Assembly (NCBI GenBank): GCA_038061925.1
Contig: JBBTYD010000005.1
Coordinates: 13,477-77,476, forward strand
Length of the DNA: 64,000 nucleotides
Origin: Patescibacteria group bacterium
GTDB taxonomy: Bacteria; Patescibacteriota; Minisyncoccia; Phycocordibacterales; UBA9973
Direction of reading: 5' to 3'
Shown: positions 5,623 through 51,686 of the stretch, one piece after another
Layout of the letters: each line of letters starts with the position of its first letter
Position numbering within the stretch: position 1 is the stretch's first letter
The notes under the pieces: generated by a model
The model's input: only the letters and a program-made list of their open reading frames with translations
What the model was told of the DNA's origin: nothing
Databases searched by the model: none
Position numbers and translations under genes: made by a program

Positions 5623-5760
5623 TTAGAAAGAATATTTATTCAACCAAATAACCAGCATAAGCATTATCATAGGCCTTGACAATGATGCTGTAGGCAAAGG
5701 CGGAACTTATTAATGTTAAGATAAGAAAATACACTAATGTTTTATTAATTCTGTACATTG

Positions 5761-5833
5761 TGCGCCCGGTTGGGATCGAACCAACGACCTTATCCTTAAA
5801 AGGGATCTGCTCTACCAACTGAGCTACGGGCGC
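5761..5833 (-). tRNA. tRNA-Lys (anticodon UUU)
   Basis: The reverse complement folds as a cloverleaf: acceptor GCGCCCG/CGGGCGC, D-arm GCUC-AGUUGGUA-GAGC, anticodon loop CUUUUAA, T-arm GUUGG-UUCGAUC-CCAAC, discriminator A. CCA is not encoded. Confidence 0.85.
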
Positions 5834-26876: not shown

Positions 26877-28223
26877 TTATTTGAGTTCTAATTTCCAAAG
26901 AAAAGAATCTTTTTTATTTATAAAAAATAAATAGTTTTCACTTTCATCTAAAGAAAGTTTTACACCATCAACCTCTTCCCCTCCTGGAATGGCCACTGGA
27001 TCGGCGAGCATTGTTCCATTTCCAGTTTTAACATCTATCTTCCAAAGTTGATCGCTAAAAGACACTTCTCCTTGATACCAAGTATCTGGATATAGACCTA
27101 CATCAACTGACTTTGGCGTAGCGCAATAGACAGTATCGCTCCCGCGCGCCCAAACACATTTTTCGGGTAGAGTTTTTATTCCCAACACATCTGAATTTCT
27201 CGTATCTAGGTGATAAACGCCAAGGGATAAATTATTCGATGCATTATTTCCACCATAAAGAATTAGTTTTCCATTGGGACTTTCGAGAGTGGTTAATCCA
27301 TTTATATTACCAAAAATTTTACTTAAATTTTTTCCAGCAGAGTCCATTGTGTACATATGCCCGGGAATACCCGCAGAAGGTTTAGTAGAAAGAGTGATTG
27401 TGTTACTATTCGGCCAAAATGATAGCCATTCAGTAAAAGGAGAATCCAGTATCTGTGTTTTTTTATTATTTAGAAAGTTTAAAATTATTCCAATCATATC
27501 ATTTCCACTGTCAAACAAGTAAAATACTTTTGAAGTATCGGGGGATATGCTTATATCTTTAACATTATTGGGCAAGAAAGATCCCTTAATTTCATTATTT
27601 TCGGTTGTATCTCCTCCTAATAATTCCTTCGGAAGAGTTCCGATAAAAGTTTCTATTGTTTGGTTGTCGGATTTTAAATATCGCATAATCACTGATTCCC
27701 CGTGGTTGCCAAAATAGCTATCGTATACTTTTGGGATTAGTGTGCTTGAGAACTTCCTTTCTTCTATCTTATCTGCGAAAGTTTGGTAAATATTTCCAGT
27801 GGCTTTATCCACATATCTCAAAGCGGGCTTAAATTCGGTTGGTGGCCGAGTCGGTTTTACGGTCTGTTTTTTAATATTTGCCGCAGGAGGGGTGGTGGTT
27901 GGCGTGGCGACCGGTATTTCCATTTCCTTCAGTCTTTCTTTTGCAAAAACCGTAAATCCCGCTATGGGCATAGTTGAAACTTTCGTTAATTTGACAGCTG
28001 GTGTTTCTGTTGCGGGAAGAGGTATATTTGATATATTAATTGGAGGTTTTACAGAGGCAGGTGTTAATTTCGCCCCAAATGGATTAAATTGCGAGAGAAA
28101 ATTTATGCCTGTTTCGTTGTCAACGGGCACCATTGTCCCCGGTCGGAAATATAAAAATCCAAAAATCGCAATTACTGTTAAAATCAAGATTATTATTAAA
28201 AGTATAAAATTTCTTTTGGACAT
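26877..28223 (-). CDS. Membrane-anchored extracytoplasmic protein with a Pro/Thr-rich linker and a predicted beta-propeller-like domain
   Basis: N-terminal TM (ILLIIILILTVIAIFGFLYF), then a P/T-rich spacer, then a beta-rich domain with PD40/TolB-like strands. No catalytic motif seen. Confidence 0.4.
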   Translation of the reverse strand: MSKRNFILLIIILILTVIAIFGFLYFRPGTMVPVDNETGINFLSQFNPFGAKLTPASVKPPINISNIPLPATETPAVKLTKVSTMPIAGFTVFAKERLKEMEIPVATPTTTPPAANIKKQTVKPTRPPTEFKPALRYVDKATGNIYQTFADKIEERKFSSTLIPKVYDSYFGNHGESVIMRYLKSDNQTIETFIGTLPKELLGGDTTENNEIKGSFLPNNVKDISISPDTSKVFYLFDSGNDMIGIILNFLNNKKTQILDSPFTEWLSFWPNSNTITLSTKPSAGIPGHMYTMDSAGKNLSKIFGNINGLTTLESPNGKLILYGGNNASNNLSLGVYHLDTRNSDVLGIKTLPEKCVWARGSDTVYCATPKSVDVGLYPDTWYQGEVSFSDQLWKIDVKTGNGTMLADPVAIPGGEEVDGVKLSLDESENYLFFINKKDSFLWKLELK

Positions 28224-28231
28224 AAATTTTA

Positions 28232-28723
28232 TTATGGAAAGGGTGATGTAATTTTATTTGTATTTGAACCAGAATTAGGTACTTGGAATGGAGCAACTGT
28301 AGGCGGAGTTGAAGTGGTTGGAGTGGAAAGAAGCGGTTCAATATCACTCCTAAGCAAGTCTGGATTTATTGTAAAAAGAAGCGCATAAGCACCAAGGGCG
28401 ATAAGAAGTCCCAAGATTGCCCCCATAATCCTTTTTTTGCCAGCTTCTTTATTCCCCGGTAATTCGCTTGTCATATATTCTAATCCACCCACCACAATCA
28501 TTACCACCGACAAAACCGCGCATAGGCCGATAAATAGTTTTATCATTGGGTTCAAATAAGCGCCTAGGCCACTCATGGTATCAACATTGCCTTGGCTATC
28601 GCCAACAGCAGGCAGTGGAGCCAAAAGATGATAGTTTGAAGTTTCCGCGTTTATTTCCAACATTGGACCAAAAAGTCCGATTAGAATGATGATTATTAAA
28701 ATATATTTTTTGTATTTCATCAT
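28232..28723 (-). CDS. VirB2/TrbC-like type IV secretion pilin candidate
   Basis: A signal peptide is followed by two hydrophobic helices (MIKLFIGLCAVLSVVMIVVGGLEYM and IMGAILGLLIALGAYALLF) separated by a short charged loop. This is the VirB2/TrbC topology. A P/T-rich tail follows. Confidence 0.4.
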   Translation of the reverse strand: MMKYKKYILIIIILIGLFGPMLEINAETSNYHLLAPLPAVGDSQGNVDTMSGLGAYLNPMIKLFIGLCAVLSVVMIVVGGLEYMTSELPGNKEAGKKRIMGAILGLLIALGAYALLFTINPDLLRSDIEPLLSTPTTSTPPTVAPFQVPNSGSNTNKITSPFP

Positions 28724-28731
28724 ATATTAAA

Positions 28732-29727
28732 TTAAAATTCTATGTTTATTTCTTTGCTTGTCGTCTCAAAAATTTTGTTTTGATTGTCAATCTGCAATTT
28801 TAAGACAGATGTTCCGGAAGCTCCCTCTGGCGCTTTAAGCGGCATTAAATTTTTTTTAAAGCCCGTTAAATTTACCAAACTGTCGTTAATGAACCAGCTC
28901 CAGATTAAGGTCGGATTTAATATTTCTTTTGGTGAAATAAAATAAGGTATTGCCTCTATTATCTCACTGCCTTGTATTTTATAAGAATTAGTCAGTGTTT
29001 TCTCCCAAATTGTTCCAAAGGAATTGTCGTTTTTATAAAATAATATTTTCGGCTCGGTCATTCCGATGTCGATACTTGCTTGACTTGAATATTTTTGGTC
29101 CACCGTTCTGGCGGTCACTGATATATTATTGGAATTTTCCAAATAGTCATTTGTGAAGATAAAGAAATTTTTACTATAACCTGAATTGTCTTGCGAATTG
29201 GTATAATCTTTCTTCCAGGCATAAATCATATTTTTGGGATCAGCCAGCGTATTGTTATTAGGAGAACCAGTTCTTATTTCCGGCATAGTCACCACTTTTA
29301 CTTCACTATCGGGTGTGGGCAAGGCTTTGCCGCGGTAAAACGGCGGGACATAAGAATCATTCGCTTGCCAAAGCAGTGTCATCACAGAAGGTCTGATTGT
29401 TATTTTTTCGTCTATCGCGCCGTCTGGTAGAGATATTGTGGCTATTACACTTGTTTCTTCACCAGCCGCCGGTGCGGTGGTTAAAAATGACTTTTTACTA
29501 ATTCCAGATAGAACAGTTTTGCCATTTACCGACCAAGATATTAAAACACTATCCAAGTTATAGACATAACTTTTTAAATTAATAGTTGTATTTTCGTATG
29601 GAGCTGGATTGGGAGGAACTATATTTACCAATATACTGTTGGACGAGTCCGCATTTACCTTTAGCGCGAGACTTCCGAATATCAGAACTATTATGATTAA
29701 ATATAACGATAAGAATTTAAATCTCAT
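28732..29727 (-). CDS. Secreted hypothetical protein (signal peptide), part of the T4SS-like cluster
   Basis: N-terminal signal peptide with ...LKVNA|DSS. Beta-rich with no recognisable enzymatic motif. Confidence 0.4.
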   Translation of the reverse strand: MRFKFLSLYLIIIVLIFGSLALKVNADSSNSILVNIVPPNPAPYENTTINLKSYVYNLDSVLISWSVNGKTVLSGISKKSFLTTAPAAGEETSVIATISLPDGAIDEKITIRPSVMTLLWQANDSYVPPFYRGKALPTPDSEVKVVTMPEIRTGSPNNNTLADPKNMIYAWKKDYTNSQDNSGYSKNFFIFTNDYLENSNNISVTARTVDQKYSSQASIDIGMTEPKILFYKNDNSFGTIWEKTLTNSYKIQGSEIIEAIPYFISPKEILNPTLIWSWFINDSLVNLTGFKKNLMPLKAPEGASGTSVLKLQIDNQNKIFETTSKEINIEF

Positions 29728-29778
29728 AGTTTAATTGTACCATATCCGCTTTATAAACTTACCAATTTTTTTTGTTTT

Positions 29779-31641
29779 TCACTTTGCGACTATTTCTCCT
29801 GCCTCTTGCTCTTCTTTTGCTTTTCTGTTTGATAGTATTTGGGAAGGATCGCTAGTGATAATTTGGTCTTCGGTATACGAAGAAATAATTTTTATGGCAA
29901 CATGTTTTAATCCTGCAAAGAATATGCCCTCCCCCACACTTGATTCTAAAAGAAGATATTTTTCTTCATCCGTAAGATTGAAAGTTTTTTGCAAGATATC
30001 AATTGTCGTGGGTGATTGTTTCAGCAAGAGCTGGATAGAAGAGTTCGTGATTATTGGCACACCATAGGGAGATTTCATAAAATCTGCCGCGTCTTGAGTG
30101 ATCGTGGAAAGACCTAAATAATATTTTCTGCTTCTTTTGGCGATCGAATAGAGAAAAGAAGCGGTATCTTCAGATTTCATCATCCACCAAGCTTCGTCGA
30201 TAACTAGTAAGCGTTTTTTCAAGTTTTTGCGTATCGCGTTCCATATATAATGCATAATTATATACATGGCGATCGGTTTAAGTTCATCTTCCATATCCCG
30301 AACAGAAAAAACAACAAACTTTTTATTTATATCCACGTTACTTGGTCTGTTTAAAAATGTTGCCCAAGAACCCCTGGTGTATTTTACCAATCTCTGCACG
30401 ACGGAATCGCTTCCATCCATTCCCGAGAGCACCATTTCAAAATCTGAAAGCAGAGGAGGCTCAATATTTGAAAAGTCTGATTCCGGAGTGATGTCTTTCA
30501 TGGCATAAGTTTCGGAAATGGCTCGATCAACCATCGAATCTTCTTCAGGGGTGAGTCCTCCCAACATCAATCGGAAAAGTCCGACCAGATTAATGATGTT
30601 TGAACGCAAAACATCTTCGGCTGTTTCATCTTCGCGCGGGATTGGCAAATCAAAAGGGTTTATATGATGGTCGGAAGAAAGAGAAATATTAAAATATCGT
30701 CCACCCACTGCACCCGCCAAGAATTCATATTCTCGTTCCGGGTCTATGACTATCACATCAACCTCAAACATTAAAGATCTTAAAATTTCCAATTTTGTCG
30801 CATAAGATTTTCCAGAGCCTGATTTGGCAAAAGTTACCGAGTTGTAATTTTCTAGAGAAAATCTGTCAAAGATAACCAAGCTTGAATTATGTCTATTGAT
30901 GCCATAAAGCACGCCTTTATTATCGGTCAAGTCGAAAGAGATGAACGGAAAAACACTGGAAAGTGGTTCGGAGTTTAATTTTTGATGAATATTCAGCAAA
31001 TCATTATTTGTCGGGATGACACTTTTAAAACCAGCTTCTTGTTGGAAAAGCGCTGGTTTGATGTAGATTAGTTTTGATTCAAGCATCGATTTTATTTCAT
31101 TTTCAATTTTAAAAAGCTCTAAATCATTATCAGCATAAATTGTGATATAAATACCCACATCAAACATTTTTTCCTGCGCTTGAATTAGACTGTCGCGTAA
31201 CCCCTCGAGATCTTGATAAGCAGTGTCCAGCACCGGGTCGCGCACCATACCTTTGGTTGCGCGCGCGCTTATTTGACTTTGCACTTCCGCAACTTTTTTC
31301 TGGAATTGTCGCAATATCAGCGAGGTGTCTATCGGGTGAATAAAGATTGAAATATCAAAAACTTTATCCAAATTGATTATCGGGGAAAACCAATTGTCCG
31401 TTAAAAATCTAGGGTAAGATATTATGAAAAACGTGCGGGCGATTTTATCGCCTAGGTTTAAGGATTTTGACTCAATTTTGAGCGCCGATGGCGCAATGAC
31501 ATCTTGGAGTTCCAGACTGGCTGACTCGTATATTTCTTCTGGCGTTATCGCCAAAATGGAAGCTTGCGTCTCATTAGGATAAGCGTTTTCCTTATTTGAC
31601 TGCGTATTTTTTTTTCCAAATAATTTATTTAAAATTCCCAT
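29779..31641 (-). CDS. VirB4/TraE/TrsE-family type IV secretion ATPase
   Basis: VirB4 N-domain pattern (LGDKIARTFFIISYPRFLTDNWFSPIINLDKVFDISIFIHPID), Walker A FAKSGSGKSY, Walker B region VIVIDPEREY and a C-terminal conserved block. Confidence 0.8.
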   Translation of the reverse strand: MGILNKLFGKKNTQSNKENAYPNETQASILAITPEEIYESASLELQDVIAPSALKIESKSLNLGDKIARTFFIISYPRFLTDNWFSPIINLDKVFDISIFIHPIDTSLILRQFQKKVAEVQSQISARATKGMVRDPVLDTAYQDLEGLRDSLIQAQEKMFDVGIYITIYADNDLELFKIENEIKSMLESKLIYIKPALFQQEAGFKSVIPTNNDLLNIHQKLNSEPLSSVFPFISFDLTDNKGVLYGINRHNSSLVIFDRFSLENYNSVTFAKSGSGKSYATKLEILRSLMFEVDVIVIDPEREYEFLAGAVGGRYFNISLSSDHHINPFDLPIPREDETAEDVLRSNIINLVGLFRLMLGGLTPEEDSMVDRAISETYAMKDITPESDFSNIEPPLLSDFEMVLSGMDGSDSVVQRLVKYTRGSWATFLNRPSNVDINKKFVVFSVRDMEDELKPIAMYIIMHYIWNAIRKNLKKRLLVIDEAWWMMKSEDTASFLYSIAKRSRKYYLGLSTITQDAADFMKSPYGVPIITNSSIQLLLKQSPTTIDILQKTFNLTDEEKYLLLESSVGEGIFFAGLKHVAIKIISSYTEDQIITSDPSQILSNRKAKEEQEAGEIVAK

Positions 31642-31645
31642 AATA

Positions 31646-32296
31646 TTATTCCAATTTTATCTTTCCTTCCACTTCTCCCGGATTGAAAACTTTATAAAAT
31701 ACTTCCACAATCTCTTCGGTGCCCAATTGAGCTGATTTTATGCCACAGCGACTAAGTCCTTGTTGAATTACGCTCACTCTTTCTTCCAGTTGAGATCTCT
31801 TTTCCTCAAAGTCTTCTTGATTGGCTATCTTTGCCTCGGCTTTATTTTTTCTCTTGAATAAATTTTTGAATATCCCGGGAAATATCCCGGAATCTGATTT
31901 TAAAACAGTATGGGTATAAGGAACCACGACAAAAAAGCTTTTTGTCATTATACTCACTGACTCGGTAAAATTCCTAATAAATTCTATATATTCTTTTGTC
32001 TGTAATTTAAGCAAAGGTTCGTTTTGCACTTTGGCTCTATCTTCTAAAAGCAAAATATAAGGTCGGATGTCGAGCCTTCTACTTTGCACTGATATTTGAA
32101 TAGTAAAATCCAAAGTATTGAGAAAACTTTGGAATTGAAGAATAGTCGCTTTTTGTTCATCGTCGGACTTTAAAGACAGGTTGACTGAGTTGGCGAGCAC
32201 GATTGCTCGCAATCCGCCGTCTTTCAGCACGATTACTCCATCGCGAACCTCCTTGATGGGAACAAATTCTTGAGTTGCTTTTGCGTTTAATGCCAT
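31646..32296 (-). CDS. Detached VirB4-N-terminal-like protein (216 aa) immediately upstream of the VirB4 ATPase gene
   Basis: ATQEFVPIKEVRDGVIVLKDGGLRAIVLANSVNLSLKSDDEQ resembles the extreme N-terminal segment of long Gram-positive VirB4/TrsE proteins. Its stop lies 4 nt before the ATG of the 620-aa VirB4 ORF. Confidence 0.45.
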   Translation of the reverse strand: MALNAKATQEFVPIKEVRDGVIVLKDGGLRAIVLANSVNLSLKSDDEQKATILQFQSFLNTLDFTIQISVQSRRLDIRPYILLLEDRAKVQNEPLLKLQTKEYIEFIRNFTESVSIMTKSFFVVVPYTHTVLKSDSGIFPGIFKNLFKRKNKAEAKIANQEDFEEKRSQLEERVSVIQQGLSRCGIKSAQLGTEEIVEVFYKVFNPGEVEGKIKLE

Positions 32297-32307
32297 ATTA
32301 TTTGATA

Positions 32308-32739
32308 TTATTTACCGTCCATGTGCTTGTTTAAATCTAATATGTCCAAGCTCCAAGCCAGATCCCGCAACTTATTTCCGCCCAGCCTGGCTTGATTTTC
32401 CAGCATTTCTCTTTTATTGTTTTCATTTGAAATTTTTAATTCTTCATTTTTGATTGTATTTTTGCGTCTTTTCCAAATATAAAGCTTGCTCTGTAAAATG
32501 TAATTAAATCCCGCTTCAATCATATTGATAAAAGGTTTATTATTTGGTCGATAACGAGCCAGGGCTATCGCCATACCCGCCACCGCTAAAATTGGGATCG
32601 CGCCAAAGAAGAGTCCTAGCAGTTTATAAAGTACAAAGCATAAGCCGGCTCCACCCGCCAAATAGACAAACTCTTTGAAAGTGAATGGGCCAAAAATTTT
32701 GTCTTCTATATCTAAAAATTGTGGTACTTTGAATTGCAT
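32308..32739 (-). CDS. PrgI/VirB3-like small membrane protein
   Basis: MQFKVPQFLDIEDKIFGPFTFKEFVYLAGG with two TM helices. It sits directly upstream of VirB4, as PrgI/VirB3 does. Confidence 0.45.
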   Translation of the reverse strand: MQFKVPQFLDIEDKIFGPFTFKEFVYLAGGAGLCFVLYKLLGLFFGAIPILAVAGMAIALARYRPNNKPFINMIEAGFNYILQSKLYIWKRRKNTIKNEELKISNENNKREMLENQARLGGNKLRDLAWSLDILDLNKHMDGK

Positions 32740-32751
32740 ATTTATTATTTT

Positions 32752-33426
32752 TTACTCGTCTGGTGATAGACGATACGGATCTCTCTTGGGCGGGTAGGAA
32801 GATGGCGGGGTTGTTTTTGTGATATTTTCCAGAGAATGTTCTGTTTTGACTATCGGAATTTGAACAGAAGCGGATAATTTTTGCGTTAAAATGGTGTCTG
32901 GTTTTTCTATTTTTTTTAGCATTTCTTCTCTACTTACATCAAAAGGAACACCGGCTGGCATAATTTCTGGAAACAGTTCTCTCTTCTCAACAATCTCAAT
33001 GCCGGCTTTATTTAGAATAGCTAGATCGCTTTTTGTTTGGGTGGCGGAATCCTCTTTAGGTGTTTGGATGTCTGAATCTCTTTGAAATATTTTTTTTCTT
33101 TCAATATTTTTAACTAATTCTTCTCGTATCTTTTTAAAAACCAGATCATTCATTTCATTTATTAATTCATTTACCGCTACTCCGGAAATTTTCATCCGTT
33201 TTTCTAATTCCCCTGGATAATTTTCTGGGCTAACAAGCCCAGAGAGCAATAACTCCGTTTCAAGCTCGAGGTCGCCTAATTGCTCAAAGGTATATCCCTT
33301 TTTTTCTCGCAGTCCCAAGATAGCCATTTTCCAATCAACCGCGTCAATCGCATTAACGGTTTCCAGCGAAAGTCCCCTTTTTGCTTTTTCTATTTTTATT
33401 TTTAACGAATCTACTGTATCATCCAT
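32752..33426 (-). CDS. Acidic hypothetical protein, paralogous to the next ORF
   Basis: Shares the block AI..(V/F)DW..MA...G.......E...(L/F)..ET.L.L.GL......L.......A.KI.GEVN..IF with ORF 33436-33924. Confidence 0.4.
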   Translation of the reverse strand: MDDTVDSLKIKIEKAKRGLSLETVNAIDAVDWKMAILGLREKKGYTFEQLGDLELETELLLSGLVSPENYPGELEKRMKISGVAVNELINEMNDLVFKKIREELVKNIERKKIFQRDSDIQTPKEDSATQTKSDLAILNKAGIEIVEKRELFPEIMPAGVPFDVSREEMLKKIEKPDTILTQKLSASVQIPIVKTEHSLENITKTTPPSSYPPKRDPYRLSPDE

Positions 33427-33435
33427 AATTTTTAA

Positions 33436-33924
33436 TTATATTACTAAATTGTCTTTTATGCTTTTGGGAGTTGGTAAATTCGTGGACGTTTCTGAGGTTT
33501 CGAATGGTTGATTCTCGCTTTCTTCTATAAAAGCGGAGTAATTTCCACCCGAAAGAATGAAATTAAGCGTTTGTTCCGGGCTTGGATTTTTATTTTTTAG
33601 ATTTTTCTTAATATTTTCTTCTATAAGGTTGCTTATTGGAGTAAATATTTTTTGATTAACTTCTCCAGTAATTTTAATTGCTTCGTCCTTACTGGTTCCC
33701 ACATTATTTTCTATATTTAGCGCGTATAAATTTCCATCTTCTAGACCTACTAGAACTAGCAGAGTTTCCACTTGAAAATCATTTATTTCACTTTCCGAAA
33801 GTAAATATTTTTTTCCTATCTCTTCCGCCATACTTCCCCAATCAAAAGTATTGATTGCCTCTTGCGTTTCTTTGGGCAATTTCAGCACTTCTTCTTTAAT
33901 TGTTTGTTGCAATTTTTCGGTCAT
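33436..33924 (-). CDS. Acidic hypothetical protein (paralog of 32752-33426)
   Basis: Same conserved block as the neighbouring ORF (FDW...ETLLVLVGLEDG...KITGEVNQKIF). No signal peptide. Confidence 0.4.
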   Translation of the reverse strand: MTEKLQQTIKEEVLKLPKETQEAINTFDWGSMAEEIGKKYLLSESEINDFQVETLLVLVGLEDGNLYALNIENNVGTSKDEAIKITGEVNQKIFTPISNLIEENIKKNLKNKNPSPEQTLNFILSGGNYSAFIEESENQPFETSETSTNLPTPKSIKDNLVI

Positions 33925-33936
33925 ATTTTTTAATTT

Positions 33937-36024
33937 TTAATGTCTTTCTTCTTTTGTTCCACTATCTAATTTTGCCTCCATTCTTATTTTTTGAGATGCT
34001 TCTCTTCTTTCTCTAGCGCCGAAACTATAATTATAACTTTTTCCTTTAAATTTAAATCCAATTTTACCCCCCTTTTCTATTCTTTCAGCATAAGCCCATT
34101 TTCTTTCCCTATTTTCTTTTACCACTTCATTTTTCGTATATGGAATTACCTCATTTTGCATTTCCTTTATAGTTTTTCCATTATTTACACCCCCTACTAC
34201 TGTTATTCCCGTTACTCCTGTTTTAATCTTATTTTTTTCGTCGTTTAGTGCTTTAATTTTAGCTATTGCTGTTGCTTCTTCTGGTGAACCGGATTTAGTA
34301 TCGAGTTTTTCTTGCCTTGCGCCGATTAAGTCTTTGTCTATTCTTTCAAAATCTTTTGCAACTTTATTTAATAATCCTTGCAAGTCTTGTTCTGCAGTGT
34401 TTACTGCTTGTTTTAACGGCTCATCCTCTCTCACCTCAAGCTCTTTGGCTCTCGCTTGTCGCTTTTTAACTTTATCAGCTCTGGCCTTTTCATATCCGCC
34501 TTCTTTAACTCCTAATCCAATTGCTTTTGATGATTCCAAGTTTAATCCACCCGCTTTAGCCAAAGCTCCAACGCCTTTTATGTTTCTCATGTCAAAAGAA
34601 GCCTTGGAACCATAATCTGCCGTTCTAAGAGCCATTCTGCCGGCAATTCCTTTTAATCCAGTTTCTTTTGCCGCATCCTGTAATCCCTTGCTACTTGCCG
34701 CCTTGGAGGCTAATCCTCCAATTCCAGAGGTCAAAGCTAATGCCGTTCCACCTGTTGCCGCGCCCAAGGCGAGACCTCCCGCCATCTTTGCGCCCTTCAT
34801 TATCATCTCTCCAAACTGACCCCCTCCCTTTTTGGCGAACTCAGTTGCCTTAAGAAGTAGAGCCATTATTACTATTGCCGGTATTAAGATACCCAAAATA
34901 GTCCCTAATATTGTTTCTGTATTTCCTCTGCTAAAGCTGGATATGTGTGGCAATATTTTAAATATTAGAAAGATAAAGAACATAAAAATCGACGCCATAA
35001 ATGACGTTGAAATTAAACGCTTAAACCAAGCATCCCATCCCAAATATTCGACACCGGCCAGTTTTGGCACAGTCCAGGACATAAAAGCAAAAGGAGAGAA
35101 TATAATTAATACCCACAGCTCAATCAATCTTCCTATAAACATAAGGCCGGCGATAAAAAACGCGTAAGCGGCCCAAAGCATAATTGCTCCGGCAATTATC
35201 ATTATTCCAAGTGTTAAGGAAAAAGGAAGCCGGTCCTCTTTTACAGTTTTACCTTCAATTGTTGTTGTTTTTAGCAGTTTTATAGTTTCTAACGTCATTA
35301 ATTTAGTGGCATCAAAATTTTTCCACATCGCGCCAGCTATATCTTTTCCATCTTTGAGTGCTGGATCTTTTGGCCTAGATGTTCCATCTGCATTTTTTGT
35401 GTTGACATCCAGGTTATTATAAAAAATTAACGCTAAGATGTTGGAAGAATCAATTACCACCTTAGTAAAAAACATAGAAAAGTTTATGAGCAAAGCTATA
35501 ATTACCACTCGAACTATTATTTTTTTTGTCTCGTGGCCCAGTCCCAAAATTGTTTGAATGGCTACATAAAGCAAAATAAGTATAAAGAAAATATTAGAAA
35601 AATCACGAACGACTCCCCAAGCGGCGGGAATAAAATCTGAGGCGCTTGTCACAGAGCTGTCTATTCCAAGATCGATCATAACATCAAAAAACTGCGCTGA
35701 TAGCCAAAGCACCCAACTAGGAAGCTGAAAAGTAGTGTAATAAAAAACCAATAACAAGCATCCATTAAACCAAGTCCAAGGCGATACACCGCAACCATCA
35801 ATAATCTCCTTTTTAAAGGGATCATTTCCCAAGGTGGCGGCAGCGGATGCCGCCTCTTTTTCTGCCGCCGCTTTATCCGCCACTTTATCCGCCGCTTTTT
35901 GTTCTGTTGTTCTTGTGTCTACTCCATATCCTATCTGCGCATTCACTCTTAACATCGGACTAAAAAGCCCGACCAAGATAATCAGTATCAAGAAATATGG
36001 AATTATTTTTTTTATTTTTTTCAT
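33937..36024 (-). CDS. VirB6/TrbL-like polytopic membrane protein with a long Gly/Ala-rich, coiled-coil C-terminal region
   Basis: Signal peptide, a large extracytoplasmic loop, at least 6 TM helices, then G/A-rich repeats and a charged coiled coil. Confidence 0.45.
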   Translation of the reverse strand: MKKIKKIIPYFLILIILVGLFSPMLRVNAQIGYGVDTRTTEQKAADKVADKAAAEKEAASAAATLGNDPFKKEIIDGCGVSPWTWFNGCLLLVFYYTTFQLPSWVLWLSAQFFDVMIDLGIDSSVTSASDFIPAAWGVVRDFSNIFFILILLYVAIQTILGLGHETKKIIVRVVIIALLINFSMFFTKVVIDSSNILALIFYNNLDVNTKNADGTSRPKDPALKDGKDIAGAMWKNFDATKLMTLETIKLLKTTTIEGKTVKEDRLPFSLTLGIMIIAGAIMLWAAYAFFIAGLMFIGRLIELWVLIIFSPFAFMSWTVPKLAGVEYLGWDAWFKRLISTSFMASIFMFFIFLIFKILPHISSFSRGNTETILGTILGILIPAIVIMALLLKATEFAKKGGGQFGEMIMKGAKMAGGLALGAATGGTALALTSGIGGLASKAASSKGLQDAAKETGLKGIAGRMALRTADYGSKASFDMRNIKGVGALAKAGGLNLESSKAIGLGVKEGGYEKARADKVKKRQARAKELEVREDEPLKQAVNTAEQDLQGLLNKVAKDFERIDKDLIGARQEKLDTKSGSPEEATAIAKIKALNDEKNKIKTGVTGITVVGGVNNGKTIKEMQNEVIPYTKNEVVKENRERKWAYAERIEKGGKIGFKFKGKSYNYSFGARERREASQKIRMEAKLDSGTKEERH

Positions 36025-36039
36025 TGATAATTAATATCC

Positions 36040-38295
36040 TCAGTATCCATTTACTGTAATCGGAATGGTGAGGATTGTTGGGGATGGTGACGAATCTTTG
36101 ACTACAACTTTAGTAGTTCCATACGCAACGCCTGTGACTGTGATGATGTCGAGCTTAAGGCCGGTAATTGTGGCGGTTGCCACGTTGGTATCCAGTTGAG
36201 AAGGAGTTTTAATGGTATAAGGCGCTACTCCGCCATAGGCGCCACCAGTTATGAGCGTATTGATCGTTTGTCCAACACCGACTGATAACGAGACAGGCGA
36301 TGTTATTGTAATGTTAGTGCTAACAATTGCCGCTGATGACGAATCTTTGATCAAAATTGCCGATTGACCTTCGGTGAGACCGGTGATTTGGAGAATATCA
36401 TCAACAATTTTGCTTGTTATCATTGCGGTATTCAACTCTTCTTTAATACTGTAGGGTTTTACACCGCCCGCTATAGGCACATTGATTGTTTGTCCGACCC
36501 TGACTGAAACATTTTGTGGAATGGTTAAGTCTTTGGGACCAATTACGATGATCTCGATCCTGACAGTTTTTACTGGATTGGAAGAATCATTTATTTCTAC
36601 ATAAGTCGAACCCGACGCGACACCGATAATAACCAAGCTTGTGTCGGAAAAGGCTACCACCGCTTTTGTTTCATCGGGACCTGTTTTCATACTATAGTTC
36701 CCTGCACCGCCGGATATGGTTACAGTCTTTGACTGGCTAACACCAATTGACATATTTAGCAGATGGGTAGCTCCATTAGCCAACAATGCTCCTATTTCAT
36801 TTACTGTGACACTGACAGTGACAGTTTTTGCGGGTATCGATGAATCGTAAACCGTGACTGTGACCGGAGTGGTGGTTGGCGTGTTAAGGGCAGTGATTAC
36901 GAGTTTTGGACCAGAAGAGTTAGAAACATCAATCGTGGCAATCGCTTTTGTTTTTGACGCGTCTGATTGGATTATATAGTAAGGCGCTTTGCCGCCAGAT
37001 ATATTTGTACTAGTTCCTTGTTGGACCCTGACTGAAACATTTTGCGGAATATTCAAAACTCCGTCTCCGCCTGCGGTAGTAGCGCCAGATAACGTAGTTG
37101 AACTGTTAAGAGTAACACTGCCGTTATAGCTCCAATTGTTGTTTTCTGAGGCTGATGGATTTACGGTGCTTGCGAGCGCATTCAAACCTTTATTCAAAAA
37201 GTTATTTATTAGTGCGTCAAAAATAGCAGAAAGACTATTACCCAGTGCTGCGCCTAGCTCCGTTTGTCTTAAATTGGATCCTAACGCGTCCATTATTTGA
37301 TTTCCCACTACTGTTCCGGGAGTTGTACTCACTAAACCGCCCGGACAAACATTGGGGCCGGTTGGATTACTCCAGGCGGCTCGCGCGGCCTCCTTATCAG
37401 CGTTATATTTGTTATTATAGGCGTCTATGCCTTTATCGTCAGTCACGGCTGGTTGCGGGTTAGCGGCATCCCAGGTTTTATCATTAAATTTAAAACTTGG
37501 TTTTAAAAATTCATTTATGCCATTGTTATAATTCGGATTGCTTGGACAAATTTGGGGAGACAAGAAACCCATACTTTGTTGAAGCAGGGATTGTATTTTC
37601 TGTGCTGGCGCCATTAATGTTCCTTCTAGCCGGCTTGCCAGATTCTGCTGGATAATCATATTAAATCCGAGATAATTATTTTGTGGATATTGCGTATTGA
37701 TTAAAAATCCGTTCCACCCTCCGTAGTTAAAATCATTTCTAAAGCGGACAAGCAAGCGAGGATCATTTATTACCTTAGACAAACTGTATTGCGCATTATA
37801 TGCGAGCTGACTTTTATAACTAGATATTACATTGAGTGCGGTTTGTGGACCGAAAGGAAATCTAAAAGTATCATAGCCGATCATATCCACTAATCTCCTA
37901 ATTTCAGATTTGGCGATATCCCTAAAGAAAGATTCCGGATTTTCTATAAAGAGAGGTGAACCGTGGAAATCGGAATTAATCCAATTAATAGTGGCTTGAG
38001 TTATTCTCGCTAAGACTGATTTTGCGATTGTCATAAGAATTTGACGAAGGAGAAAGTTTGCAAAATCTTTTAAATGGAGACTCGTGTTTACTACCGTTGA
38101 TGGTACACCTATTGCGTGGAAAGCTTTAGATATCCAGTTTCCGATTGAGTTAATCGTGCTTACATTAGTATTAGCCACATCAGTAACTGGTAGTTGCGCT
38201 CGCGCTCTTTCTGGTATAGATAACAAAACAGAAGGCAATACTATTAAAACAATCAAGAGAGCGGAGATGAATTTTATTGTTTTGTTGTTAACCAT
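36040..38295 (-). CDS. Large secreted surface protein (751 aa) with four C-terminal Ig-like repeats
   Basis: Signal peptide (ISALLIVLIVLPSVLLS). The N-terminal alpha/beta domain has no known catalytic motif. Four repeats of about 90 aa each carry the motif (I/P)xGG.xPY.I(K/Q) ... (V/I)TG(L/V). Confidence 0.45.
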   Translation of the reverse strand: MVNNKTIKFISALLIVLIVLPSVLLSIPERARAQLPVTDVANTNVSTINSIGNWISKAFHAIGVPSTVVNTSLHLKDFANFLLRQILMTIAKSVLARITQATINWINSDFHGSPLFIENPESFFRDIAKSEIRRLVDMIGYDTFRFPFGPQTALNVISSYKSQLAYNAQYSLSKVINDPRLLVRFRNDFNYGGWNGFLINTQYPQNNYLGFNMIIQQNLASRLEGTLMAPAQKIQSLLQQSMGFLSPQICPSNPNYNNGINEFLKPSFKFNDKTWDAANPQPAVTDDKGIDAYNNKYNADKEAARAAWSNPTGPNVCPGGLVSTTPGTVVGNQIMDALGSNLRQTELGAALGNSLSAIFDALINNFLNKGLNALASTVNPSASENNNWSYNGSVTLNSSTTLSGATTAGGDGVLNIPQNVSVRVQQGTSTNISGGKAPYYIIQSDASKTKAIATIDVSNSSGPKLVITALNTPTTTPVTVTVYDSSIPAKTVTVSVTVNEIGALLANGATHLLNMSIGVSQSKTVTISGGAGNYSMKTGPDETKAVVAFSDTSLVIIGVASGSTYVEINDSSNPVKTVRIEIIVIGPKDLTIPQNVSVRVGQTINVPIAGGVKPYSIKEELNTAMITSKIVDDILQITGLTEGQSAILIKDSSSAAIVSTNITITSPVSLSVGVGQTINTLITGGAYGGVAPYTIKTPSQLDTNVATATITGLKLDIITVTGVAYGTTKVVVKDSSPSPTILTIPITVNGY

Positions 38296-38347
38296 AAATT
38301 TGTAACATTATTATAACCTGTATTAGCCCTAGAGGGGAGTCCTGCTC

Positions 38348-39271
38348 CTACTGCTGGGATAATAATTTTTGGTTGATTGCGCTCATAAGATTGTCAACTT
38401 CTGAATCTAATTTGGTCATGTTTTCTTCGTATTTACTTATGCCGCCCAAAGCCATAATAGTGTCGCTGTCATAAAGTTTTATATCGCTTATATTTTCTAC
38501 TAATCTCTCTAACGAGTTTACAACATTTAAATGCAAGGTTGAAACAGATTGTGGCACAGTCATTTTAACCATGCCCTCTACCACTTTTTTCGTTTGTTCG
38601 ATAATTGGATCAAGTTTTACAAGCACGCTGGAATCGACAGTATTTTCATCAACCATAAATTTTTGCAGTACATCCAATACCGTATAATCCATTGCCGGAT
38701 ATTTTTTTTGAAGGCTGTTGAAGGTATTGATATAATTTGTGAAAGTTTTAACGCTGTCGTCACTTGTTGTTTTTATTTCGGAAATTAAAAACACTTTTCT
38801 TGGCGGAGAATTTTGAATCTTGTCTGCCAAAGAAGCGCTCAGTGCGTCTATCGTTGCTTGATCCATAGGCCCATTTTGGCTGGCGGCTGCTACAGTCGCG
38901 AAAAGTTCTCTAGAAAATTTGTCTGTCTGTGTCAAGTTTTCTTTCCCCTGATTATCTCTATTTTCCAGCAAGGGTAGTCCTTGCTGGTTCTGTTCTGTTT
39001 TTGATTTTAATTTACCTATGGCGACATTGTCCGGTGTCCCGGGAGCTGTTTCTTTCTTAGTCGGATCGAGTCCATATAAACCTTCTTCCCAATCCGGTAT
39101 TCCATCGCCATCGGTATCTTTATTTACTAAATCTTTTATTGTCACATTATCATAAGTTAAGCTATTTTCTTGATTAACCGATTGATATGTTTCCTTATTT
39201 TTAAATACGGAAGTTGTTTTTAGAAGAAAAAGCGCGACAACAAAAACCACCGCCAAAACGATCCAAAACAT
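38348..39271 (-). CDS. Membrane-anchored protein with a calcium-binding-like DTDGDGIPDWEE motif
   Basis: N-terminal TM, a DxDxDGxxDxxE motif (thrombospondin-type-3 / dockerin-like), then an alpha-helical domain. Confidence 0.4.
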   Translation of the reverse strand: MFWIVLAVVFVVALFLLKTTSVFKNKETYQSVNQENSLTYDNVTIKDLVNKDTDGDGIPDWEEGLYGLDPTKKETAPGTPDNVAIGKLKSKTEQNQQGLPLLENRDNQGKENLTQTDKFSRELFATVAAASQNGPMDQATIDALSASLADKIQNSPPRKVFLISEIKTTSDDSVKTFTNYINTFNSLQKKYPAMDYTVLDVLQKFMVDENTVDSSVLVKLDPIIEQTKKVVEGMVKMTVPQSVSTLHLNVVNSLERLVENISDIKLYDSDTIMALGGISKYEENMTKLDSEVDNLMSAINQKLLSQQ

Positions 39272-42286: not shown

Positions 42287-43075
42287 TCAGTTGGTACGAA
42301 TTATATTGAATCCGTCTTCGCCTTCCCCAGTGATCTTTGTTCCTTTTTGTTTTTGCAGTTTCTCTTTTCGTGCTTTTTTCTCTGTTTCCAATCTTTCCTT
42401 ATTTTCCTTTTGTATTTCCATATTAGCTTTAGGACGAAGGTTTTGAATGTGAACATTATGAATTGACGCTTCATCGGCTGTTATTGGTTCTCCTTTTGTT
42501 AATTTTGCCTCTATTCCTGCGATGATTTCTTCATAAGTCTCCACTCTAGTTTTTGGTGGAATAGTAGGCGCGGAATTTGTTGCTTTGAATTCCGCTAATT
42601 GATTACTAAAGGCTGTTTCTTTTTCCGCTAATTTTTTTTCATATTCTGATTGCAATTTAGCTCTTATTTGTTCAACAGTCAGAGGTTCATTAGCTAATTT
42701 TTTTGCTTCTGCAGATAAATTTGTTGCCGGAGATGTGTAAGTGCCTGTTTTTTTATTAACGTCAACTTTCTGCTCAATTTTTTTTCCTGTCGGAGTATGG
42801 CTGTCCCACCAACCCAATTTTTTTCCACCTTTATAACCGCCAAAGATTCCAAGTCCAGCCGCCAATGCTCCGATTGTGGCTCGGACTCTATTTTTTGTAA
42901 AAAAGGATGATCCATTATAAGTTTTTTCAAATGATTTTTGGGCTTCACTTGTATGAGAGTTAGGAACATCAATCGGGATTAGATACCCTTCTCTATCCCT
43001 GCGCTCTGGCGGTGTTGGTGGTAAAGGTATTTTTATTGTTTCTTTTTTGGGATTTTGTGACGGTTGTGATTCCAT
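42287..43075 (-). CDS. Hypothetical protein with one TM and a K/E-rich coiled coil
   Basis: TM ATIGALAAGLGIFGGY. The remainder is low complexity and charged. Confidence 0.35.
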   Translation of the reverse strand: MESQPSQNPKKETIKIPLPPTPPERRDREGYLIPIDVPNSHTSEAQKSFEKTYNGSSFFTKNRVRATIGALAAGLGIFGGYKGGKKLGWWDSHTPTGKKIEQKVDVNKKTGTYTSPATNLSAEAKKLANEPLTVEQIRAKLQSEYEKKLAEKETAFSNQLAEFKATNSAPTIPPKTRVETYEEIIAGIEAKLTKGEPITADEASIHNVHIQNLRPKANMEIQKENKERLETEKKARKEKLQKQKGTKITGEGEDGFNIIRTN

Positions 43076-43184: not shown

Positions 43185-43426
43185 TTCTGAGTAGAGGTGT
43201 TGTACTAAATGGCTGAACGACAGAGATGATAGTAACCATTGCGAGAATCTTTTGTTTGCAGTACTATTTTGGTCGTCCTGTAATTCTACCTTTATTTTGT
43301 AATGTTTAACATAAAGGTCGGAAAGGAATTCTTGCGATATCCATTTGTTTTATAAAACCACTATTTAAAATATTCAACTCTTTTTCGGTCTTTTTCCTGC
43401 TGTCCGGGGCGTTTTTTTTGTCGTCT

Positions 43427-44500
43427 ATGCCTCTGCCGGCGCAAGCGGGATTTTTCTCTTCAATTTTTGGCGATGATGCTTACGCGCAGGCAGATAAAGC
43501 GAATTCGACTTCACCCAGTAAGAATTCACAGACTATGGATCTCCTTCAGGCCAACGTCTCCTCTGCTTCAGTCTTGCAAGATAAGAACAATAATAAAGAC
43601 GATAAACAGAAAGACGCCAAGCAAGACAACTTAATTGACACAAATGTAAATGTGAACATAGTCTCAGATAATGCCATTCTTTCCGCAAGTGGCCCCTTGG
43701 GCGTATCCGATGGCGCGAATGCCCCAGATTCTTCTTCTCTTCAAACAAGCGTATATGTGGTAAAAAAGGGAGATTCTATCTCCCAAATAGCTCAAATGTT
43801 TGGTGTCTCTGTAAACACTATTCTCTGGGCCAACGATATGAAAAAAAGGGACAAACTCAAAGAGGGGGATGTCCTTTTTATTTTGCCTGTTTCTGGACTG
43901 GAACACACTGTTACTAAAGGTCAAACTCTACAAAGTATCGCAAAACTTTATAAAGTGGATGTAAATGACATTATTCAAAATAATAATATTACGGAAGACG
44001 CTAAACTTGCTATTGGTGACACGCTTATTATTCAAAATGCTGAAAAATCTGAAGAAAGTGATAAACCAATTAAGAATCTAAGCGCCAGTATTGCAAAAGA
44101 TAAACTTTATTACGAGCAATATCCTACCCAGAATCTGGCGGGATATTTTATTAACCCTGTGCCTGGGTATAGATTGAGCCAGGGTATTCATGGTAAAAAC
44201 GGGGTGGATCTCGCGATAGCCAAAGGCACTCCGATTCGTGTAGCTGCGAGTGGTCGGGTTATTCTCGCCAGAAATGGGTACAATGGCGGTTTTGGAAATA
44301 TGGTGATTGTTTCTCATCCGAATGGCACAGAAACTCTATACGCTCATCAATCTAAAATAGCCACTTCTGCTGGCGCAGATGTCTCTCAGGGCCAAGTAAT
44401 CGGTTACGTGGGTTCTACTGGACGTTCCACTGGTCCGCACTTGCATTTTGAAGTTCATGGAGCGAGAAATCCCGGAGCGGACGGATCTTGGGCAAATTAA
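43427..44500 (+). CDS. Secreted peptidoglycan hydrolase: two LysM domains plus an M23 (LytM-type) metallopeptidase domain
   Basis: LysM repeats YVVKKGDSISQIAQMFGVSVNTILWAN and HTVTKGQTLQSIAKLYKVDVNDIIQNN. M23 motifs HGKNGVDLA and GSTGRSTGPHLHFEV. The start is uncertain: the ATG at 43427 gives no signal peptide, and the frame is open upstream to 43310. Confidence 0.8.
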   Translation: MPLPAQAGFFSSIFGDDAYAQADKANSTSPSKNSQTMDLLQANVSSASVLQDKNNNKDDKQKDAKQDNLIDTNVNVNIVSDNAILSASGPLGVSDGANAPDSSSLQTSVYVVKKGDSISQIAQMFGVSVNTILWANDMKKRDKLKEGDVLFILPVSGLEHTVTKGQTLQSIAKLYKVDVNDIIQNNNITEDAKLAIGDTLIIQNAEKSEESDKPIKNLSASIAKDKLYYEQYPTQNLAGYFINPVPGYRLSQGIHGKNGVDLAIAKGTPIRVAASGRVILARNGYNGGFGNMVIVSHPNGTETLYAHQSKIATSAGADVSQGQVIGYVGSTGRSTGPHLHFEVHGARNPGADGSWAN

Positions 44501-49416: not shown

Positions 49417-50486
49417 GCTGGAATAAAAGTGAGTGCGGTGCCTTTCTTGCCGGAACGGCCGGTTCGGCCGATGCGGTGCACATAGGTGTCGTAAGTTTGT
49501 GGCACATCATAATTTATAACGTGCGTAACATCTGGAATGTCTAATCCCCTGGCGGCCACATCGGTTGCAATTAATATCATGATGTGATCTTTTTTAAATG
49601 ATTCGAGTATCCGAATGCGTTCTCGGCTTCTCTTGTTGCCATGAATGCCGCCGACTTTAAATCCGAGCGCGTGCAATTCTTTAGCCAAAGAGTCCACACT
49701 GTGTTTCATCTCGCGGAAAATTAAAATTTTATTTGAACCATCTTTTTTTAAAACTTCACGTAGTTTTTCTAATTTTTCTTCCTTGTTCCTTACCCGAATC
49801 ACGTCTTGGTCAATATTTTTTGCCGTCTCTCCGGAGATTACCGAAATGAAAACCGGTTCTTTTAAATATTGCTCTGTTAATTTCTTGATATCGGGAGAAA
49901 GAGTCGCAGAGAAGAAAAGCGTCTGGCGTTTTTTGGGAGTTTTACCAATTATATAAATCATATCATCTCGAAATCCCATATCCAACATACGATCCGCCTC
50001 ATCTAGGACTACACTTTGACAGGCAGACAAATCTAAAACTTTTCGATCAATAAGATCTCGAAGGCGTCCGGGTGTGCCGATAACAAACGATACCCCGAGT
50101 TTTATTTCTCTGATTTGTTTCATTATCGGCAGTCCTCCTACGCAAGCCACAGAAAACATTCCGAATCCAAAAGCCAGATTTTTAAAATCGCTTTCTATCT
50201 GGAGCGCAAGTTCTCTGGTCGGCGCCATTATTAAAACCGTTTCTCTTTTAGCTTGCCCTTTAGTTTTTGAAATTTTTTCAATCAGAGGCAAAAGAAAAGC
50301 CGCCGTCTTGCCAGTACCGGTATTAGCCATACCAAAAATATCCTTGCCCAAAAGGATTGTCGGTATGGCTTGATCTTGAATGGGTCTAGGATTTTCAAAT
50401 CCAACCCTTTTGATATTTTTGTGAAGTTGTGGGCTAAAAGGAAAATCCGCAAAGCGATGTCTGGATATGTAGGGTTTTTCCTCCAC
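49413..50486 (-). CDS. DEAD-box ATP-dependent RNA helicase
   Basis: Q motif, motif [22 protein letters not shown] ([10 protein letters not shown]), SAT and HRIGRTGR. Confidence 0.85.
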
Positions 50487-50705
50487 CTGAATACCCTTTT
50501 TGATAAAACGAGAAAAATCAATCCGTTCACCTCTTCGGACTGGTTTTTTAAAGTTCCTATTTCTTTTTCGTGCAAAACTTTGTGCAAAGCGAGAATGAGA
50601 ACTTTTATTGAGTTTTCTGTAAACGTAAGTTATAATTTAAGTATAGCATTTTGTAAAAAGTTTGTCAATGTTTTATTAATCTTCCAAAAAACATATAATG
50701 AAAAT

Positions 50706-51686
50706 ATGGATAAAAAACTTACTGGTAAACACGCAGACGAATCATACTTAGACCTATTGGAGCATATAATGAAAAATGGCGCAACCAAGACCGATCGCAC
50801 CGGGACAGGAACAAAAAGCATATTTGGATATCAAATGAGATTCAATCTTGCCGACGGTTTCCCTCTTTTGACCACCAAAAAAATGCCAATTAAATCTCTA
50901 ATTCATGAACTCTTATGGTTCATGCGAGGTGATACTAATTTGAAATATTTAGCAGATAATAACGTCCATCTTTGGGATGAATGGCCATATAAAGCATATT
51001 TAATAAGGAATAAAATTAAGGTGCCAAAAACTAATTCTGAAGAATGGAGTACTGGTATCAAAGAATTCGTAGAAAAAATAAAAACTGAAAAAAATTTTGC
51101 GAAAGATTATGGAAATTTGGGACCGATTTATGGATATCAGTGGCGGAGTTGGCCCGCTTACGCTGAAGCTTCGGCGGGTCAGCCAGCTCACAAATATTAT
51201 ATTGATCAATTAAAAAACGTGATAGAGGAAATTAAAAAAAATCCAGATTCGCGCCGGCTGATTGTTTCGGCTTGGAACGTAGCGGATATAGAAGAGATGG
51301 CGAAAGCCGGACTGCCTCCCTGCCATTCCTTATTTCAGTTTTATGTCATTAATAAAAAGTTATCTTGTCAACTTTATCAGCGTTCTGGTGATACGTTTTT
51401 AGGTGTCCCCCTCAATATCGCTTCTTATTCTTTGCTGACTATGATTATCGCGCAAATTTGCGGACTGGAATTGGGAGAATTCGTCTGGACTGGCGGTGAT
51501 GTGCATTTATATTTAAATCATTTAGAACAAGCAAAATTACAACTTTCTCGACGTAATGATATTCGCCCATTGCCGAAAATAAAAATAAATCCTCAAAAAA
51601 ATAAATTGGAAGATTTCACGATAGAAGATTTTGAATTAATTGATTATCATCCGCAGGAAGCCATAAAAGCGCCCATTGCCGTATAA
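50706..51686 (+). CDS. thyA: Thymidylate synthase (ThyA, long form with insertion)
   Basis: [33 protein letters not shown]...FPLLTTKK and the catalytic LPPCH. The start was reassigned to ATG at 50706. The ORF-track start at 50370 adds 112 residues of non-homologous sequence overlapping the DEAD helicase gene. Confidence 0.85.

Follow-up and report, generated by a model that had tools for sequence, protein, structure and literature searches.

Among 3,035 Patescibacteria genomes surveyed by Quinonero-Coronel et al. in 2025, VirB4 was found in 2,417, and the Patescibacteria VirB4 proteins formed a clade nested in MPF_FATA (PMC12102498). In that survey TrsD was the commonest associated component of type IV secretion systems (T4SS); PrgI/VirB3, VirB6 and VirB2-like pilins lay near virB4, VirB8 was almost absent, and relaxases were present in only 103 genomes. 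The virB4 neighbourhoods of Paceibacteria were rich in dnaA, dnaN, rnpA, ksgA and rpmH. The T4SS of Southlakia epibionticum (SEML1_0006-0019; Saccharimonadia), which has no recognisable coupling or relaxase proteins, was demonstrated by transposon sequencing (Tn-seq) to be essential for epibiotic growth (Wang et al. 2023, PMC10633639). A 2025 review treats the Patescibacteria systems as a new T4SS group (PMC12857230). A 2024 PNAS perspective called their role 'completely unknown' and floated nucleotide uptake (PMC11665869), and a 2026 preprint describes tubular structures at the parasite-host interface, suggested to be T4SS pili (bioRxiv 10.64898/2026.06.21.733656). Here we analyze a cluster of eleven genes at positions 26877-39271 of a 64-kb stretch of DNA (the window) from a Patescibacteria group bacterium. 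The cluster is very probably a chromosomal, vertically inherited, non-conjugative T4SS of the kind typical of Patescibacteria (Candidate Phyla Radiation, CPR), in its Paceibacteria/Nomurabacteria form, which arose from repurposed monoderm MPF_FATA-like conjugation machinery.

The eleven genes lie consecutively on the minus strand between jag and ksgA. They are named g1 to g11 in transcription order and encode products of 307, 751, 695, 162, 224, 143, 216, 620, 331, 163 and 448 amino acids. A first-pass annotation, made by a model from the letters alone, had described the same eleven genes; every one of them is an open reading frame (ORF) where it had been placed. On an identical metagenome contig from Hainich groundwater, genes called independently gave the same 11 products, with a length of 162 or 163 amino acids for g10. 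The intergenic gaps from g1 to g11 are 4-52 nt; the genes are packed tightly into one block and are probably co-transcribed. A consensus promoter scan found one plausible −35/−10 pair in the ksgA-g1 spacer; this pair excepted, promoter and terminator sites were no commoner than in shuffled sequence. One flank holds jag (R3H), yidC, yidD, rnpA, dnaA and dnaN, and the other ksgA/rsmA followed by a UvrD/PcrA helicase gene, in agreement with the earlier statement that the cluster sits in the core chromosome next to the genes of the replication origin. The GC content of the cluster (0.36-0.42) equals that of its surroundings. Profiling of the window covered 40 ORFs: besides the 11 cluster genes, 29 others were taken, among them all ORFs of at least 242 amino acids. 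For relatives, a scan with one genome per species gave 80 loci whose VirB4 is 70-90% identical, all of them from Paceibacteria (Nomura-, Kaiser-, Taylor-, Yonath- and Giovannonibacteria); together with two further contigs (L001 and L002), 82 loci were considered.

The VirB4 ATPase proper is g8 (29779..31641; 620 amino acids), probably of a Patescibacteria type related to MPF_FATA. The VirB4 call made on first reading held up in profile searches, where g8 scored 363 bits against NF045971 (CD1110-family VirB4; cut-off 325). Further NCBIfam matches were to Mbov_0397 (VirB4 of the Mycoplasma integrated conjugative element, ICE; 266.8 bits), TraC-F and VirB4_CagE, Pfam PF19044 (P-loop_TraG) was matched at 1.3e-24, and a weak match to CedB was obtained at 1.9e-6. 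The best curated families are monoderm MPF_FATA types, CD1110 and the Mycoplasma ICE. The residues G275, G277, K278 and S279 of the Walker A motif (AKSGSGKS) and D482 and E483 of the Walker B motif (LLVIDE) are invariant in homologue alignments. Among the matches listed with named sources (8000 scored at E ≤ 1e-20), the nearest homologues, at 87-94% identity, all came from Candidatus Nomurabacteria/Paceibacterota metagenome-assembled genomes (MAGs). The N-terminal domain of VirB4 is encoded by a separate ORF, g7 (31646..32296; 216 amino acids), which is TrsD/TraC-like. It matched the NCBIfam models VirB4_plasma (the Mycoplasma-ICE model; 3.4e-9) and TrsD (NF041427; 1.9e-6) and carries a precomputed annotation as PF26593 TraC-like. 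By BLASTP it corresponds to residues 1-213 of a fused 797-amino-acid VirB4 homologue, P0122 (E 2e-46, 38% identity), so that its description as a VirB4 N-terminal-like ORF proved correct. The g7/g8 split is kept in 77 of the 82 loci and is therefore not a frameshift artefact.

The cluster encodes one membrane partner of the ATPase and a putative second one. Two genes upstream of g8 lies g6 (32308..32739; 143 amino acids), a small PrgI/VirB3-like membrane protein with a transmembrane (TM) hairpin at residues 24-63. It reached 33.1 bits against PF12666 PrgI (gathering score 27), matched TcpE at E 0.0028, and was found immediately before g7 in 74 of the 82 loci. The other, g3 (33937..36024; 695 amino acids), is a putative extended VirB6-like polytopic membrane protein. 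By hydropathy it has 5-6 TM helices at about residues 130-400 and then a hydrophilic tail of about 300 amino acids, Gly/Ala-rich and with coiled coil. The g3 family profile, built from 46 orthologues, matched TrwI (VirB6 of R388, 7o3v_F) over the TM region at E 0.029, and PF04610 TrbL/VirB6 was matched by 4 of the 46 orthologues, at best with 6.2e-6. These matches support a VirB6-like assignment, which is accepted at the family level only; the topology fits.

The pilin module is g10 (28232..28723; 163 amino acids), VirB2/TrbC-like and located two genes downstream of g8. Hydropathy indicates a signal peptide, two hydrophobic helices with a basic loop between them, and a Pro/Thr-rich tail. It scored 30.2 bits against PF18895 T4SS_pilin (gathering score 26.6), so that both g6 and g10 stand above gathering scores and the PrgI/VirB3-like and VirB2/TrbC-like calls are borne out; below threshold were TrbC/VirB2 (0.0014) and an Mbov_0395 pilin-like model (3.7e-5). 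No sequence match to the g10 profile was found in the PDB. Proteins of the g10 family in relatives usually have 200-774 amino acids (long examples are L003:12871-14616 and L006:12903-14033), and the window protein is a short form without a hydrolase. When g10 and 69 orthologues were scanned, the T4SS_pilin hairpin was kept in 56 of the 70 sequences, and 22 matches to peptidoglycan-active domains were counted, some proteins possibly holding more than one domain: NlpC/P60 (9), VanY (4), YkuD (3), SLT-type (4; SLT, SLT_2 and SLT_4), and Amidase_2, M15_4, 3D and Amidase_5 (one each). Extensin-like_C (1) and Pur_ac_phosph_N (3), also matched, were left out of this count. As judged from these domain matches, then, Paceibacteria relatives often carry the pilin hairpin in fusion with peptidoglycan-hydrolase domains, a small increment of the present work. 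Such fusions suggest a combined VirB2/VirB1-like role. They fit the remark in PMC12102498 that it is mainly in Paceibacteria that VirB1 homologues are tied to virB4; a pilin-hydrolase fusion is not mentioned there, as far as a term search of the text showed.

The statement that almost every product is secreted or membrane-bound was right for the majority but overstated, since 7 of the 11 products are of this sort. The first cluster gene, g1 (38348..39271), encodes a membrane-anchored 307-amino-acid protein with a TM segment at residues 1-25, a DxDxDG motif (DTDGDGIPDW) and a helical C-terminal domain. A weak match to TSP3_bac (E 0.019) covers residues 52-72, and the pattern D.D.DG..DW.E is kept in the consensus of 48 orthologues; the motif is probably TSP3-like and Ca-binding. 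By iterated hidden Markov model (HMM) search g1 was found in 44 of the 82 loci, and its positional orthologues directly follow ksgA. The g1 profile gave no sequence match in the PDB, VirB8 included. Behind it, g2 (36040..38295) encodes a 751-amino-acid surface protein with an N-terminal TM or signal segment, an orphan all-alpha region of about 370 amino acids and C-terminal immunoglobulin (Ig)-like modules. A pattern search located modules of the GG..PY type at residues 434, 610 and 688, and inspection by eye added a fourth, GGAGNY, close to residue 529; they are mirrored by the DNA repeat family D1. Among 54 g2 homologues, 15 matched PF13629, and there was one Big_2 match too. The AlphaFold2 (AF2) model of g2 residues 1-394 is all-helical with a mean confidence (pLDDT) of 60; it was too poor to use, and Foldseek returned only noise and no match. 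A VirB5-like role for g2 was considered on account of its start (AQLPVTDVAN) and of sub-threshold DUF4141 matches at the N-terminal ~50 residues in 5 of the 54 homologues, the only signal of VirB5 type. Nothing relevant to VirB5, TrbJ or TraC was obtained in PDB profile searches or with NCBIfam on the 54 homologues, and no further signal came from tblastn against 72,556 plasmids or from Pfam on 42 more divergent orthologues. The idea of g2 as a VirB5-like pilus-tip protein is therefore not substantiated, and it is not claimed here.

Directly after virB4 in 74 of the 82 loci comes g9 (28732..29727; 331 amino acids), predicted to be a membrane-anchored or secreted rod of three tandem Ig/fibronectin type III (FnIII)-like domains. 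Its AF2 model (pLDDT 79.5) combines a TM helix (residues 2-21) with three domains of beta-sandwich fold, so that what had been called simply a secreted protein now has a predicted architecture. The best Foldseek matches were Ig domains of phage Hoc (1.6e-7), followed by generic Ig/FnIII chains, and the g9 profile matched Hoc at 1.2e-3. The possibility that g9 is the missing VirB8-like protein was ruled out by this model and the Foldseek result. The last gene, g11 (26877..28223; present in 61 of the 82 loci), encodes a membrane-anchored protein of 448 amino acids with a TM segment at residues 1-32, a Pro/Thr-rich linker and a conserved Cys pair (C356/C367). Its family profile gave a dozen weak but consistent matches to TolB chains (E 0.007-0.035); among 60 orthologues PD40 was matched by 2 and PG_binding_1 by 2. 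The membrane anchor described on first reading is confirmed, while the beta-propeller is only weakly indicated, as a TolB/PD40-like fold.

Between g3 and g6 lie g4 (33436..33924; 162 amino acids, pI 4.49, without a TM segment) and g5 (32752..33426; 224 amino acids, pI 5.20), both predicted to be cytoplasmic acidic proteins. Plain BLASTP showed no relationship between them (E 0.08), and their paralogy was revealed by profiles alone: hhalign of the two families gave a probability of 99.5% (E 1.4e-22), and an HMM derived from g4 matched g5 at 5e-20. By this profile evidence the two are true paralogues, as had been proposed. A DPYRE-like motif at the C-terminus is conserved in the g5 family consensus. 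In most relatives there is only one g4/5 gene, and the g4/5 profile gave no informative match in the PDB. Taken together, profiles, hydropathy and models show the eleven earlier product descriptions to have been essentially right. The accompanying claim that most components have no annotated homologues needs qualification: thousands of homologues exist, and it is their labels that are mostly 'hypothetical'.

The genetic context was then weighed against the possibility that the cluster is an integrated conjugative element, or the decayed remnant of one, that lies near the origin by chance. In most of the 80 loci, where the contig was long enough, iterated HMM searches and positional maps gave the order uvrD-ksgA-g1-g2-g3-g4/5-g6-g7-g8-g9-g10-g11-(jag)-yidC-rnpA-dnaA-dnaN. 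Exceptions were L015, L026, L062, L064, L071 and the two further contigs L001/L002. In seven Kaiserbacteria-like loci (L033, L034, L042, L044, L047, L048 and L054) g1 is tandem-duplicated, the end of the cluster reads g9-g11-g10 and the pilin has 141-247 amino acids; some related genomes have two copies of g10. Such retention of the gene order in most of the 80 loci marks the cluster as a vertically inherited core locus rather than a mobile element. Within the Paceibacteria cluster the lineage-specific g1, g2, g4/5, g9 and g11, none of them annotated, hold conserved positions. An ICE would account for the fact that the VirB4, VirB3 and pilin families match models of ICEs and conjugative transposons (CD1110, Mbov_0395, Mbov_0397 and TrsD), and monoderm conjugation machinery is its presumed ancestor. 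However, the 40 ORFs profiled in the window include no VirD4 or other type IV coupling protein (T4CP), relaxase, integrase or recombinase, and no notable inverted repeat that could indicate an oriT was seen, as the first-pass annotation had reported for its part; nor were flanking direct (att-like) repeats found at the cluster. Moreover, the GC content equals that of the neighbours, the ORFs are intact and conserved at 70-90% VirB4 identity, and the order from ksgA to jag/yidC/dnaA is free of insertions in most of the 80 loci across several Paceibacteria lineages, which points to vertical inheritance. On synteny, composition and the absence of mobility genes from the 40 ORFs profiled the ICE reading was dismissed, and we regard it as highly improbable.

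If the cluster is a non-conjugative T4SS, established T4SS biology suggests how it would work. VirB4 hexamers of g7 and g8 would dock on g6 (VirB3) and g3 (VirB6), forming the membrane translocon, and would drive the extraction of pilin. The g10 pilin module, together with g1, g2, g9 and g11, would span the cell wall and touch the host cell, while g4 and g5 would work in the cytoplasm, where an adaptor role is speculative. The machine would thus move macromolecules between epibiont and host, either exporting effectors or importing host nucleic acids or nutrients, and its origin-proximal position would give it a high gene dosage. As to function, export of effectors or other proteins is tentatively put foremost, at somewhat short of an even chance; import of host material is possible but less probable, and a function mainly in attachment or as a pilus, or something else, is given about the same weight as import. 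Effector or protein export thus ranks slightly above import of host nucleic acids, and both rank above a purely adhesive role. A more specific Paceibacteria variant, which we think rather improbable, would have g1, g2, g9, g11 and g4/5 take over the functions that the cluster lacks (VirB8, VirB1, adhesin and coupling) and the VirB2-like hairpin also anchor hydrolases, the wall-spanning tube importing host RNA or nucleotides into a cell unable to make them.

Two further rivals concern function rather than origin. The cluster may be specifically a nucleic-acid import machine, like Helicobacter ComB or the Ced system of Sulfolobales, which feeds a cell unable to make nucleotides. The weak CedB match of the VirB4 and the lack of a T4CP or relaxase nearby are consistent with this. 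In Southlakia epibionticum comEC is dispensable and the T4SS essential (PMC10633639, PMC12857230), and on these grounds nucleotide acquisition by the T4SS was proposed in the PNAS perspective (PMC11665869); the 2026 preprint ties feeding on host RNA to a monophyletic VirB4 (bioRxiv 10.64898/2026.06.21.733656). On the other hand, no DNA-binding, RNA-binding or nuclease domain was detected by Pfam/NCBIfam profiles in the 11 products, and ComB-type systems rely on VirB7-10, which are absent from the cluster. An import machine of this specific kind is a serious but unlikely alternative, at about one chance in four. Alternatively, the cluster may be chiefly an apparatus of surface structure and cell-wall remodelling, that is, an adhesive fibre with hydrolases and not a translocation channel. 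The seven extracytoplasmic products with their Ig-like, propeller and Ca-motif domains, the frequent fusion of the pilin module to peptidoglycan hydrolases in relatives, and PG_binding_1 on some g11 orthologues would all suit such an apparatus. Against it stands the translocon core, composed of a conserved VirB4 with intact Walker motifs, VirB3 and a putative VirB6; but VirB4 also serves pilus biogenesis, so this point is not decisive. We consider an apparatus without a channel doubtful, and less probable than the import machine.

Several points weigh against the assignment of the cluster to a Patescibacteria-type T4SS. No VirB8-like (NTF2-fold) bitopic protein was found in the cluster, g9 having been the best candidate, and no hydrolase domain, as expected of a VirB1-like peptidoglycan hydrolase, was found in g1-g11 with Pfam/NCBIfam profiles. 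The g3 protein of the window, taken alone, has no Pfam match, VirB6 included; what stands of its earlier description as a VirB6-like polytopic protein is the topology and the family-level support. The large hydrolase domains on the pilin module of relatives are hard to reconcile with a canonical VirB2 pilus. In a close relative (L001:3412-11857, on a 587-kb contig, VirB4 88% identical) ksgA and g1-g8 are kept, with g4/5 as one 371-amino-acid gene and a g2 of only 434 amino acids; g9-g11 are absent after virB4, and genes for a DksA/TraR zinc-finger protein and a ComM-like Mg-chelatase stand there instead. Homologues of VirD4/T4CP occur in most Patescibacteria genomes, mostly far from virB4 (PMC12102498), and a VirD4 homologue may likewise exist elsewhere in the present genome. 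Finally, essentiality has been demonstrated only in Saccharimonadia and not for any Paceibacteria T4SS. With these points taken into account, the non-conjugative, host-interaction T4SS proposed by the first-pass annotation is still supported, and it matches the published view (PMC12102498, PMC10633639, PMC12857230).

Outside the cluster, the rest of the profiled window is housekeeping (PolA, a PilB-type ATPase, the diaminopimelate pathway, RuvB, TyrS, PBP1a, EF-G, ThyA, MurB and others), with one exception. At 595-5622 on the plus strand, adjoining tRNA-Lys (5760-5833), is encoded a 1675-amino-acid protein with SpvB, FG-GAP, DUF6443 and RHS-repeat domains. It resembles polymorphic toxins or Tc-like proteins and is a candidate for a host-directed effector. 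A LysM and Peptidase_M23 protein is encoded at 43418-44500 on the plus strand, 4 kb from the cluster, past ksgA, uvrD and an unannotated 262-amino-acid ORF (42287-43075). Since the cluster holds no VirB1-like gene, this protein is a possible candidate for a cell-wall hydrolase partner. The PilB-type T2SSE ATPase (9570-11267, plus strand; E 7.5e-115) is probably part of a type IV pilus machinery, the second envelope machine, besides the T4SS, that Saccharibacteria are known to need for epibiosis. The thymidylate synthase ORF (50370-51686, plus strand; 438 amino acids) contains its Pfam domain from residue 125; either the protein has an N-terminal extension of about 124 amino acids or a mechanically assigned TTG start lies too far upstream. 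As to the source, g9 sequences with 100% identity occur in a 'Patescibacteria group bacterium' MAG and on contigs from groundwater fractions of 0.1-0.2 µm. Three of these contigs (L083-L085; ENA ERZ1292626 and ERZ1292640, Logan ERR3858133), from the 0.1 and 0.2 µm filter fractions of Hainich (H43) groundwater metagenomes, agree with the locus in the arrangement and lengths of the genes, which indicates where the source organism lives and that its cells are small.

The Patescibacteria T4SS is among the few machines that might explain how ultra-small, biosynthetically poor bacteria exploit a host. The present window offers no new kind of system; it is a clean, complete Paceibacteria example. Its uncharacterised conserved envelope partners (g1, g2, g4/5, g9 and g11) and the pilin-hydrolase fusions of relatives could guide structural and genetic work, given a tractable Paceibacteria co-culture. 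The question of what cargo the CPR T4SS carries is important, and the window leaves its testability unchanged.

Compared with known systems, the locus shares with the Mycoplasma ICE T4SS, that of a wall-less monoderm, matches of g8, g7 and g10 to its NCBIfam models, all three below the equivalog cut-offs. The Mycoplasma system belongs to a mobile ICE that brings its own integration functions. Both ComB of Helicobacter pylori and archaeal Ced are VirB4-based, relaxase-free DNA importers, and g8 has its weak CedB match in common with the latter; however, ComB includes VirB7-10 and Ced uses CedA/A1/A2, and neither set is detectable in the present cluster. The Gram-positive conjugative T4SSs of MPF_FATA type (pCF10 Prg/Pcf, pIP501 Tra and the C. 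difficile conjugative transposon (CTn) CD1110 type) likewise combine VirB4 with PrgI/VirB3 and lack a VirB7/9/10 outer-membrane core; their VirB6-like protein has a putative counterpart in g3. In contrast to them, the present locus is without a T4CP, relaxase, oriT, VirB8-like protein (PrgL/TraM) and VirB1-like protein (PrgK/TraG), and it has a VirB2-like pilin, which they do not.

The resemblance to the T4SS of Southlakia epibionticum ML1 is closer: both are chromosomal, origin-proximal and Gram-positive-conjugation-like, VirB2-like pilins occur in both, and in neither cluster is a relaxase or coupling protein recognisable. The Southlakia system differs in its array of six divergent pilins and in the peptidase and lysozyme genes downstream of virB4, whereas the cluster analyzed here holds a single short pilin and no hydrolase, and has the set g1, g2, g9 and g11, traced only in Paceibacteria. 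With the Patescibacteria-clade T4SS in its Paceibacteria arrangement (PMC12102498), the locus has in common a VirB4 nearest to MPF_FATA, an adjoining TrsD-like ORF, PrgI/VirB3, a VirB2-like pilin close to virB4, the lack of a relaxase or T4CP in the vicinity, and dnaA, dnaN, ksgA and rnpA as neighbours; its putative VirB6-like protein would be a further common feature. There is no essential difference, and the locus is an instance of that kind, a kind of system already published in 2023-2025, including the missing relaxase and the origin-proximal position. What is added to that survey is g1, g2, g4/5, g9 and g11 as conserved positional components, the three predicted Ig-like domains of g9, and the putative pilin-hydrolase fusions of Paceibacteria relatives.

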